Of a stretch of DNA of 24,000 bases, positions 2,331 to 3,222 are shown one piece after another. Position 1 is the stretch's first letter. Every line of letters starts with the position of its first letter. The notes under the pieces were generated by a model, which made no database searches, was not told where the DNA came from, and was given only the letters and a program-made list of their open reading frames with translations. Both the position numbers and the translations under genes were made by a program. This DNA is from Neisseria lactamica NS19. Lineage in GTDB: Bacteria > Pseudomonadota > Gammaproteobacteria > Burkholderiales > Neisseriaceae. Location of the stretch: NCBI RefSeq assembly GCF_000193795.1, contig NZ_AEPI01000022.1; one strand, written 5' to 3'.

Positions 2331-2349
2331 TTTTAGGAACTCTAAAATT

Positions 2350-3168
2350 ATGTCAAAAAATAAAATTAGTTTTAATGTAGCTGAAGAGAAATCTGCACGG
2401 CTGGCTGTTTTAATTGATGCTGATAATGCGTCAGCGCAAACCATTGATGCGATTTTAGAAGAAACAACTAAATTCGGTGAAGCAATGGTAAAACGCATCT
2501 ATGGCAACTTTGTTGGTGACAACGGCAAATGGAAAGCCGTCATTAATGAGCATGCTATCAAACCTATGCAGCAATTCGCCTACACCACAGGTAAAAATGC
2601 CACTGACGGTTTTATGATTATTGATGCGATGGATTTACTCTATACCGGCCGTTTTGATGGTTTTTGTTTGGTATCTAGTGATAGTGACTTTACTGCACTG
2701 GCTATCCGGTTGAAGGAACAAGGTGTAACAGTTTACGGTTTCGGCAAAAAGCAAACGCCTGAAGCTTTCCGTAATGCGTGCAGCCAATTTATCTATGTAG
2801 AAAACTTGATGCCTGAACCCGCACAAAAAGAAACAGTAACTGATAAACTACAGAAACCAACAGAGAAACAGATTCAAACAGTCTCTCCCAAAAATGCTCA
2901 AGCTCAACCGAAAATTGCCGAACAACTTGAGAACAAACTACCGTTGGAGACTATACATAAAATTTTCGAACATGCGGATAGTGAATGGATGGCTATGACT
3001 GCATTCAGTGCTACTTGGAAACGCTTGCAGGTAGATTTTGACCCACGTAATTACGGTTGTAAGAAATATACCGATTTAGTGAAAAAATATTCTGATGTTT
3101 TTGATTACGAGATGCGAAAAACTGCTGAAGGCACGCAAGAGCATATGTATGTCAAGCTTAAAGTCTAA
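2350..3168 (+). CDS. NYN-domain (PIN-like) predicted ribonuclease with a C-terminal OST-HTH/LOTUS domain
   Basis: The ATG at 2350 (MSKNKISF) is chosen because the ORF-track start at 2251 overlaps the ACT gene. NYN signatures are LAVLIDADNAS and FCLVSSDSDFTALAIRLKEQGVTVYGFG. A Q/P/K-rich linker follows. The C-terminal part (WMAMTAFSATWKRLQVDFDPRNYGCKKYTDLVKKYSDVFDYE) fits a LOTUS-like fold. Confidence 0.8.
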   Translation: MSKNKISFNVAEEKSARLAVLIDADNASAQTIDAILEETTKFGEAMVKRIYGNFVGDNGKWKAVINEHAIKPMQQFAYTTGKNATDGFMIIDAMDLLYTGRFDGFCLVSSDSDFTALAIRLKEQGVTVYGFGKKQTPEAFRNACSQFIYVENLMPEPAQKETVTDKLQKPTEKQIQTVSPKNAQAQPKIAEQLENKLPLETIHKIFEHADSEWMAMTAFSATWKRLQVDFDPRNYGCKKYTDLVKKYSDVFDYEMRKTAEGTQEHMYVKLKV

Positions 3169-3172
3169 TCGA

Positions 3173-3203
3173 AGGTCGTCTGAAAATATTTTTCAGACGA
3201 CCT
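3173..3203. terminator. Perfect hairpin built from two inverted copies of the variant DUS AGGTCGTCTGAA
   Basis: AGGTCGTCTGAA (3173-3184), 7-nt loop AATATTT, TTCAGACGACCT (3192-3203). The core is GTCGTCTGAA rather than the GCCGTCTGAA used elsewhere in the window. Confidence 0.75.
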
Positions 3204-3222
3204 GCAAGAAAGGCCGAATCCC

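Follow-up and report, generated by a model that had tools for sequence, protein, structure and literature searches.

The DNA uptake sequences (DUS) of Neisseria occur in dialects. One of these, AG-mucDUS (AGGTCGTCTGAA), can be derived from AT-DUS through two changes, T>G at position −1 and C>T at position +2. According to Frye et al. (2013, PMC3630211), it outnumbers all other repeats in N. mucosa ATCC 25996, N. sicca and N. macacae. In the same study, AG-mucDUS transformed N. meningitidis MC58 at 36% of the AT-DUS rate, and the 88 copies of AGGTCGTCTGAA present in MC58 were taken by the authors as traces of imports from the mucDUS group. We report here on 24,000 nucleotides of N. lactamica NS19 (contig NZ_AEPI01000022.1; this whole stretch is called the window below), in which a gene for a protein with a NYN domain (PIN-like nuclease) and an OST-HTH/LOTUS domain is placed between an ACT-domain gene (UPF0237) and a DUF711 gene (UPF0210), and is followed by two inverted AG-mucDUS. 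As in the tracer case of Frye et al., AG-mucDUS serves as the mark of import; unlike there, a donor allele, an empty recipient allele and both breakpoints are visible for one event.

As for the protein, a described counterpart is MARF1 (Limkain b1), a ribonuclease of eukaryotes with NYN and LOTUS domains. Mouse MARF1 cleaves single-stranded RNA with Mg2+ or Mn2+, and requires residues D178, D215, D246 and D272 as well as its LOTUS domains (PMC6217404). The bacterial proteins combining NYN and OST-HTH domains ('LK-nuclease + OST-HTH') were predicted to be stand-alone RNA-degrading enzymes, without conserved neighbours (Anantharaman et al. 2010, PMC2848206). Two bacterial LOTUS domains have been assayed for RNA binding: that of TP0894 (Treponema) binds G-quadruplex RNA, and that of NE0665 does not (Ding et al. 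2020, PMC7498356). No measured activity of any full-length bacterial NYN+LOTUS member was found in the literature searched. An earlier reading of the window, made by a model from the letters alone (the sequence-only reading), had called these proteins experimentally uncharacterised, which holds for the whole bacterial protein and not for the LOTUS domain. As for the site, the described systems to which it can be compared are the minimal mobile elements (MMEs) of Neisseria (Saunders and Snyder 2002, as cited in a passage of PMC1538595).

Results

A 922-bp segment stands in place of 41 bp

The locus consists of three open reading frames (ORFs), all on the + strand: the ACT gene (2058-2330, 90 amino acids), the NYN-LOTUS gene (2350-3168, with its ATG at 2350 and its stop at 3168; 272 amino acids, WP_019272002.1) and the DUF711 gene (3223-4581, 452 amino acids, named 'PFL family protein'). 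These limits agree with the sequence-only reading, which had put the end of ACT at 2330, the start of UPF0210 at 3223 and a single gene in between.

The extent of the cassette was given by comparison with another N. lactamica contig, L087. This contig is 100% identical to the window over positions 1-2330 (2330 bp) and 3253-4628 (1376 bp), and has 41 bp where the window has 2331-3252. The imported segment (2331-3252, + strand) is 922 bp long, and stands in place of these 41 bp of the empty allele; it had been thought to end at 3210. Its left border is the first base 3′ of the ACT stop codon. Its right border is inside DUF711, just 3′ of the first 10 codons (3223-3252, + strand), which are donor-type in the window, the empty alleles having the resident N-terminus MSIQSGEIL. 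Among the 7 N. lactamica contigs encoding exactly the ACT protein of the window, 6 have the cassette (L081-L086) and L087 does not.

The segment was also absent from N. meningitidis. Strain Z2491 and three other meningococcal genomes are empty at this site, with the order prmB-MORN-ACT-DUF711-...-alr, a gap of 14 nt between ACT and DUF711, and a 41-bp junction that differs by 1 base from that of L087. The idea that the ACT/DUF711 pair is rare in Neisseria, and is as a whole an island, was rejected: a cluster look-up and the meningococcal loci both have it as a standard pair (NMA1908/NMB1653). A contig labelled N. lactamica 919_NLAC (JUNU01000148.1, L001) was rejected as an empty site of N. lactamica: it contains 11 AG-mucDUS and no canonical DUS, and its gene order is recA-grx-ACT-DUF711-era, without cassette, a context typical of mucosa/sicca-group contigs. 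It therefore belongs to that group or behaves like it; the contig is probably mislabelled, or else comes from a genome that is not N. lactamica as usually understood. It was used solely as an empty allele of the mucosa/sicca group, which is itself polymorphic for the cassette.

Within 2331-3252, neither terminal repeats nor a target duplication were found, the only repeat being the internal DUS hairpin, and the segment contains no second ORF and no transposase, integrase or recombinase gene. As the right breakpoint falls within homologous DUF711 coding sequence, it points to homologous replacement by a donor that already had NYN upstream of DUF711. The event is best read as an allelic replacement, not as a new insertion; the cassette does lie inside the ACT/UPF0210 operon as proposed, and it is the idea of an insertion made there that has to be given up. 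The 5′ two-thirds of DUF711 are mosaic in N. lactamica: L085 and L086 are 8-9% different from the window over 3253-4150, despite being 99.9-100% identical to it over ACT and the NYN segment. This suggests repeated recombination endpoints within the gene.

The cassette carries the dialect of the mucosa/sicca group

The hairpin occupies 3173-3203, starting 4 nt past the NYN stop codon. Its two arms of 14 nt (3173-3186 and 3190-3203) pair at every position (100% complementarity), giving a stem of 14 bp with a loop of 3 nt, and both hold the exact 12-mer AGGTCGTCTGAA. The fold has a calculated energy of −24.3 kcal/mol (z = −6.1). The sequence GTCGTCTGAA is found twice in the 24 kb, both times in the hairpin, and two copies were reached in 0 of 100 shuffles. 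All 20 remaining uptake sequences of the window have the GCCGTCTGAA core, 17 being AT-DUS (ATGCCGTCTGAA) and 3 AG-DUS. The perfect hairpin, the assignment of its 12-mer to the AG-mucDUS of the N. mucosa/N. sicca group (PMC3630211) and the common core of all other uptake sequences had each been noted from the sequence, and were borne out. AGGTCGTCTGAA is not vanishingly rare in AT-DUS genomes, since MC58 has 88 copies (PMC3630211). We regard the hairpin as first of all an uptake-sequence pair that would act as a tag of the donor dialect; it is possibly also an RNA-stabilising or attenuating stem-loop.

The three AG-DUS (AGGCCGTCTGAA) are at 17107-17118 (+), 17638-17649 (−) and 17731-17742 (+). 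They are clustered within 640 bp, inside a DUF2868 gene (16625-17761), which is possibly another imported tract, from an AG-DUS species.

The segment 2331-3210 is AT-rich as had been reported (39.1% G+C, with two 60-nt lines at 27%, against 55.8% in DUF711). Raw G+C was nevertheless set aside as weak evidence of foreignness: ACT is low too (43.6%), and among stretches of the same size in the 24 kb, 8% reach the same AT-richness. The G+C content at third codon positions (GC3) was used instead and gives a clear contrast, with 0.34 for NYN, 0.62 for ACT and 0.67 for DUF711.

The relatives of the cassette were then considered. Its NYN protein belongs to a 90%-identity cluster with that of N. sicca VK64 (WP_003765467.1, P0122; 445 contigs, 644 collection blocks), 'unclassified Neisseria' (240 contigs) and rare entries labelled N. 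cinerea or N. lactamica. In AT-DUS species the gene is rare: the exact protein of the window is on 3 contigs only, and 2-3 contigs were found for the N. cinerea variant as well as for the second N. lactamica variant. Six long contigs from oral metagenomes with a N. sicca-type NYN (L097-L102) have the order recA-grx-ACT-NYN-hairpin-DUF711-era-rnc. They contain 14-17 copies of AGGTCGTCTGAA per 12.8 kb, no 12-mer AT-DUS or AG-DUS, and one GCCGTCTGAA core, in L099; they are therefore mucDUS-dialect genomes. The NYN variant nearest to the window was found in L111 and L112 (4 amino acid differences, at residues 167, 181, 220 and 240), the latter contig being purely mucDUS with grx upstream. In both, the hairpin, the spacer and the DUF711 start are the same as in the window, and one hairpin arm is mutated in L097-L102, L113 and L088/L089.

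Nucleotide identity to the mucDUS-dialect contigs changes abruptly at the borders, from about 98.6% within 2331-3252 to 92-95% on either side. The insert is 98.0-98.7% identical to L097-L102 and L111-L113, compared to 89.5-95% for the flanks. For L111, mismatches with the window amount to 13 of 922 in the insert 2331-3252 (1.4%), 14 of 273 in ACT (5.1%, Fisher p = 8×10−4 against the insert) and 34 of 448 in DUF711 at 3253-3700 (7.6%, Fisher p = 2×10−8). The three differences between the window and L111 that fall in NYN-domain codons are synonymous, given that the proteins differ only at the four residues listed above. The ACT gene of the window is 100% identical to the empty allele of L087, and 93-95% identical to mucDUS-dialect donors. 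An import from the mucDUS group (N. mucosa, N. sicca, N. macacae) is well supported by these comparisons.

The protein is a predicted endoribonuclease found in varied contexts

Both domains named by the sequence-only reading were confirmed by a hidden Markov model search, with scores above the Pfam gathering cut-offs. NYN (PF01936) matched residues 17-150 with E = 2.8×10−36 (125.6 bits for a cut-off of 24.2, profile positions 1-144 of 145), and OST-HTH (PF12872) residues 200-258 with E = 2.4×10−9 (37.4 bits for a cut-off of 23.8). On the DNA, the NYN domain spans 2398-2799, a disordered and hypervariable linker about 2815-2931, and the LOTUS domain 2947-3123. The TIGR00288 equivalog, whose name is given to the protein in some sources, was rejected (29 bits for a cut-off of 178).

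The AlphaFold2 model has a mean predicted local distance difference test (pLDDT) of 73.9. Its NYN region is mostly at 73-91, with one block of 10 residues at 63, the linker (residues 156-194) is disordered, and the LOTUS region (residues 199-270) forms three helices and a two-strand wing. The top Foldseek matches were 6FDL, 5YAA and 2QIP, with E of about 6×10−8 to 4×10−7, TM scores (target) of 0.72-0.82 and root-mean-square deviations of 2.2-4.0 Å. The NE0665 LOTUS domain (2KPM) was also matched, and was retrieved by sequence too (E = 5.7×10−9, or 3.6×10−13 with a profile). PDB sequence searches with the NYN domain did not reach any NYN structure; the fold search alone did. The closest solved bacterial relatives are both structural-genomics proteins, VPA0982 (2QIP, Foldseek E = 7.7×10−8) and the NE0665 LOTUS domain.

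The alignment comprised 28 homologues, drawn from Neisseriaceae, Pasteurellaceae, Cardiobacteriaceae and Moraxellaceae. They share 59-81% identity overall, with a nearly invariant NYN domain, a hypervariable linker (residues 155-195) and a moderately conserved LOTUS domain. Residues D23, D25, N26, D86, D92, D95 and S109-S110-D111-S112-D113 are invariant. In the model, D23-x-x-N26 is at the end of beta-1, D86 at the start of helix 84-98, and S109-x-D111 after beta-4. Mapped to MARF1 by secondary-structure register only, D23/N26 would correspond to D178/N181, D86 to D246, and S109/D111 to S270/D272; at the end of beta-2, an invariant Asn53 appears to occupy the place of D215, again by register and not by superposition. 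The protein resembles MARF1 in the order NYN then LOTUS, in the predicted NYN fold (TM 0.79-0.82 on mouse and human MARF1) and apparently in most of its acidic pocket residues. It differs from it in that a single LOTUS domain takes the place of eight and RRM domains are lacking, in an identity of 16-19% only, and in the apparent replacement of D215 by Asn.

Our best guess is a stand-alone, MARF1-like and metal-dependent endoribonuclease, with a LOTUS domain that would bring it to its RNA: an N-terminal PIN-like nuclease would be joined by a disordered linker to a C-terminal winged helix, which would probably recruit RNA. One published result weighs against the last point, as NE0665, whose LOTUS domain is the closest solved relative, failed to bind G-quadruplex RNA in vitro (PMC7498356).

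Homologues of this protein occur as lone genes in unrelated places. Of two close and very AT-rich homologues, one separates murE from murF in the dcw cell-wall cluster of N. zalophi (L096, 5001-5813), and the other separates cas4 from cas1 in a type I-C cas operon of Mannheimia succiniciproducens (L092, 5001-5825). Another one is alone between fab genes and queH in Cardiobacterium hominis, and a Klebsiella IncFII plasmid has one beside repA and relBE. Full-length homologues (about 43-49% identity) are on 376 plasmids, of which 165 are conjugative, and some are on a few phage-plasmids of Klebsiella. Such variable contexts are those of the bacterial family, and would agree with the stand-alone view of Anantharaman et al. 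(PMC2848206). In 4 of 5 hosts examined, the GC3 of the NYN gene is far below that of its neighbours (0.14-0.40 versus 0.55-0.81); in the fifth, the low-G+C Mannheimia, it fits the host. This hints at a low-G+C reservoir for the gene.

These contexts raise the question of whether NYN-LOTUS is a conflict gene, either an anti-phage or anti-plasmid RNase or a selfish, addictive nuclease, instead of a housekeeping-type enzyme of RNA turnover. Such a role would explain its accessory state, its foreign composition (with the same GC3 contrast in the window as in the four hosts above) and its frequency on plasmids and phage-plasmids, and it would be in line with the homologue inside a cas operon and with the presence/absence polymorphism within species. 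Opposed to it are the absence of any conserved partner, antitoxin or sensor, alongside the gene, and the very strong conservation of the NYN domain across families, which is unusual for fast-evolving conflict genes. A search of the PADLOC-DB v2 defence models with NYN, ACT and DUF711 returned 0 families at E ≤ 0.1. Moreover HEC-09, the sole NYN/MARF1-like candidate, of another architecture, in an embedded-defence screen, gave no protection (10.1101/2024.01.29.577857). Taken together, we hold the conflict role as a serious rival, though less likely than not.

The ACT-DUF711 junction holds different cassettes

Among the matches listed, ACT is directly before DUF711 in all 73 evaluable species loci, with a gap of at most 60 nt in 62 of them and of more than 300 nt in 3 only. 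UPF0237 and UPF0210 genes are normally immediate neighbours in many bacteria. The two genes flank the site in N. lactamica, N. meningitidis, N. polysaccharea, the mucosa/sicca group, Eikenella and Cardiobacterium. What lies between them varies: nothing in L087, L103-L106 and L001; NYN-LOTUS in the window, L085, L088, L090, L097-L102 and L111-L113; a DUF6630 gene in L107-L109; and a gene for a secreted protein in L005.

In Eikenella, the order is ACT-NYN-DUF711, the NYN protein is 82% identical, and one eikDUS is found on each side of the gene. Contig L088, of AG-DUS dialect, has the cassette with one decayed mucDUS arm. In N. polysaccharea, the region equivalent to window 2331-3222 (L107, 2786-3960) is made up of two copies of AAGCAGCCTGCA (king3DUS, from Kingella) that are inverted to form a hairpin, about 450 nt of non-coding DNA, the DUF6630 gene (217 amino acids) and a further GCAGCCTGCA core. 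This would imply that the DUF6630 cassette came from a donor of Kingella dialect. AG-kingDUS, which is related to king3DUS, is taken up very poorly by N. meningitidis, by a factor of about 5000 (Frye et al., PMC3630211), and the N. polysaccharea case, if true, is one of DNA crossing a dialect barrier. Finally, the ORF of Cardiobacterium valvarum (L005, 3241-4000) encodes about 235 amino acids, with a signal- or lipoprotein-like N-terminus (MKKSLLTLCLAAVCATATA...).

Other observations were made around the junction. A DUS of the host dialect ends directly before the DUF711 start (...CTGAAAAATG) in a metagenome-assembled genome of an AG-DUS Neisseria without NYN (L006, 2777-2798) and in Eikenella (L090, 6830-6846), where a second, inverted DUS copy precedes NYN. 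One may speculate that the NYN gene first landed within or beside a DUS at the ACT-DUF711 junction. In another Eikenella sp. (L091, 2304-3443, − strand), a second NYN+OST-HTH gene of 379 amino acids lies 2.5 kb upstream of ACT-NYN-DUF711, a stretch which in L090 contains phage terminase and portal genes. As to the pair itself, DUF711 is 85-92% and ACT 73-82% identical between Neisseria and Pasteurella langaaensis, P. bettyae and Cardiobacterium valvarum (L002, L004 and L005), a similarity that spans bacterial families and classes; the next DUF711 relatives, with about 70% identity, are in Firmicutes. It seems that oral and respiratory Gram-negative bacteria have exchanged the ACT/DUF711 pair by horizontal transfer.

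The behaviour of the junction fits that of an MME site. As in MMEs, two conserved flanks enclose whole-gene contents that vary with the strain or species (empty, NYN-LOTUS, DUF6630, secreted protein), there are neither mobility genes nor repeats, and exchange would proceed by transformation and homologous recombination in the flanks. Unlike in MMEs, the site is within an operon, between co-oriented genes 14 nt apart when it is empty; the right crossover is intragenic; the flanks are kept across genera and even families; and the cassettes bear DUS of the donor dialect, which name their source. The ACT-DUF711 site was not found as a named MME in the literature searched.

A broader proposal, which we put forward as speculative and rather unlikely to hold in full, is that the junction is a landing pad used across genera in oral Neisseriaceae and their neighbours, and that NYN-LOTUS is a selfish or defensive RNase nested without promoter in operons and plasmids. 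The unusual conservation of the flanks, even between families, would let single-gene cassettes pass by transformation, and each of them would bear the DUS dialect of the host it last came from. So far, these marks would be mucDUS for N. lactamica, king3DUS for N. polysaccharea and eikDUS for Eikenella. NYN-LOTUS would persist in the ACT/DUF711, dcw, cas and fab operons and on plasmids without serving the host operon.

Other features of the window

The gene order at the left end of the window is a prmB-like methyltransferase (140-1057), a MORN-repeat protein (ending at 1932), ACT/UPF0237, the 272-codon NYN-LOTUS ORF and DUF711/UPF0210. The ACT protein matches Pfam ACT_6/ACT and the NCBIfam equivalog PRK00194 (113 bits), and the DUF711 protein matches Pfam DUF711 (E = 4×10−189) and NCBIfam PRK05313. 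The NYN, ACT, DUF711 and alanine racemase proteins have exact RefSeq matches under the name N. lactamica (WP_019272001-5).

Further along, a DUF4410 lipoprotein gene (4677-5159, − strand) is frameshifted, with A6 at 4998-5003 compared to A5 in L085, another N. lactamica contig in which the gene is intact (159 amino acids). The split gene might be a pseudogene or a sequencing error, or contain a short slippage tract. Two NmsRb small RNAs (Rfam RF02877) are in tandem at 7264-7354 and 7467-7554 (− strand; 106.7 and 86.6 bits), between an AsnC-type regulator and dsbB; for the cassette and its surroundings, the Rfam search gave no known RNA. Five short tracts (60-110 bp), at 6570-6674, 7257-7323, 7461-7526, 7801-7865 and 16088-16197, are dispersed repeats with 94-98% identity to several places in N. 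meningitidis loci, probably of the Correia type or of a similar neisserial kind. The genes lacY and lacZ, markers of N. lactamica, are at 11610-15921, a stretch that includes the G+C minimum of the window (about 36%, near 12.7 kb).

Discussion

A Neisseria of mucDUS dialect was probably the source of the cassette, which N. lactamica would have taken up by natural transformation and integrated by homologous recombination of the RecA type. The origin and route proposed by the sequence-only reading are supported by the empty alleles, the mucDUS contigs and the step in identity at the borders. In the donor, the order ACT-NYN-hairpin-DUF711 would have been already in place. The conserved ACT gene on the left and DUF711 gene on the right would have provided the homology arms, with one crossover at the ACT stop codon or slightly to its left and the other past DUF711 codon 10, so that 922 bp of donor DNA came in and 41 bp of resident DNA went out, both inverted AG-mucDUS being carried along. 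The imported pair should still be usable in AT-DUS recipients, at about one third efficiency, and now marks the segment as foreign. The entry of the NYN gene into the operon would be an earlier event, in the donor lineage; Eikenella has it at the same site, and the ACT-NYN-DUF711 arrangement appears to be old and common to the donor group and Eikenella.

Some points weigh against this scenario. The transformation route is deduced from the DUS and the breakpoints. Contig L087 may represent either the ancestral haplotype or a secondary loss of the cassette by replacement with an empty allele; its identical flanks fit a gain in the window lineage and a loss in L087 equally well. Finally, the closest sampled donors are about 1.3-1.4% divergent in the insert, and 3-4 amino acid changes are private to N. 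lactamica. With this residual divergence, the actual donor must be unsampled, or the import not very recent, or made via an intermediate species.

The last of these possibilities would make the import indirect, through an AT-DUS or AG-DUS species (N. cinerea, N. polysaccharea or another oral Neisseria) itself fed by the mucosa/sicca group. Besides the residual divergence, sequences labelled N. cinerea or 'unclassified Neisseria' in the same 90% NYN cluster speak for such a relay, as does the AG-DUS-dialect contig L088, which has the cassette with one mucDUS arm. However, the N. cinerea variant differs from the window by 14 amino acids and L088 by 15 (95.8% nucleotide identity), while the mucDUS-dialect variants are nearer, with 4-8 differences, and the exact hairpin and junction occur in mucDUS-dialect contigs. 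An intermediate host is thus unlikely, and direct import from the mucDUS group remains the reading that we prefer.

In its present place, the NYN gene is co-oriented with its flanks, 19 nt past ACT and 54 nt before DUF711. The 19-nt spacer (2331-2349, + strand), with AGGA 12 nt upstream of the ATG, does not vary across the NYN-bearing Neisseria loci. No promoter-like site was found on the + strand in 1850-4750, cassette included; upstream of ACT, an extended −10 candidate, TGgTATAAT, was recognised by eye at 2013-2021. Lacking a promoter of its own, the NYN gene would most likely be co-transcribed with ACT and DUF711 from a promoter upstream of ACT, and transcription would have to pass through the hairpin for DUF711 to be expressed. 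The cassette had been credited with its own terminator. Carried further, this would mean a cassette insulated by the hairpin and a DUF711 gene driven by a new promoter. Inverted pairs of DUS are often proposed as terminators in Neisseria, and the stem-loop is strong. It is however not followed by a T-run on either strand (CTGCAAGAAAGG on +, TCGATTAGAC on −), and a terminator scan of 1850-4750 called nothing, hairpin included. The DUF711 start comes only 19 nt after the hairpin, again with no promoter-like site, and if termination were complete, a gene found next to ACT in all the evaluable species mentioned above would be silenced. We consider it quite improbable that the hairpin works as an intrinsic terminator, and favour read-through.

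Two further explanations dispense with an import by recombination into an empty allele. According to the first, NYN is ancestral at the site in N. lactamica, and the empty alleles of L087 and N. meningitidis are secondary deletions. The prevalence of NYN among the contigs with the exact ACT protein of the window (6 of 7) would suit it, and its presence on diverged DUF711 backgrounds means that the allele is not brand new in the species. Yet the empty junction is nearly identical in L087, Z2491 and the mucDUS-dialect L001, with a proper resident-type DUF711 start, and independent precise deletions would not yield the same junction again. Moreover, divergence from the mucosa/sicca group is 4-6 times lower in the insert than in the flanks, and the insert has a foreign dialect and a foreign GC3. 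This explanation is very unlikely. The second, a transposon, integron-like cassette or homing element targeting the junction by its own machinery, would account for the lone relatives in the dcw cluster of N. zalophi, the cas operon of M. succiniciproducens and the fab/queH locus of C. hominis and for the reuse of the site by unrelated cassettes, but it can practically be dismissed, as genes for a transposase, integrase or recombinase are absent from the segment, neither inverted nor direct repeats stand at its ends, its target is not duplicated, and its right breakpoint in homologous coding sequence is a signature of homologous recombination.

Import into N. lactamica from the mucDUS group by homologous replacement leaves current views as they stand: imports from commensals, MMEs, DUS dialects and the NYN+LOTUS architecture are all established, and this is a fairly ordinary gene exchange between throat bacteria, cleanly resolved. 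Its value is in the resolution: for one probable transformation event between commensal Neisseria, the alleles of recipient and donor type can be seen together with the two breakpoints and a dialect tag that names the donor group. The locus is suited to the study of the limits that DUS dialect and flank homology set to gene flow between throat species, a flow that could run towards pathogens, in which the same empty site is found. The most interesting extension would be a swap site used by several dialects, including Kingella-dialect DNA in N. polysaccharea. For the NYN+LOTUS family, a small single-copy gene that is present or absent in near-isogenic strains offers a tractable route to the role of a bacterial MARF1-type RNase.

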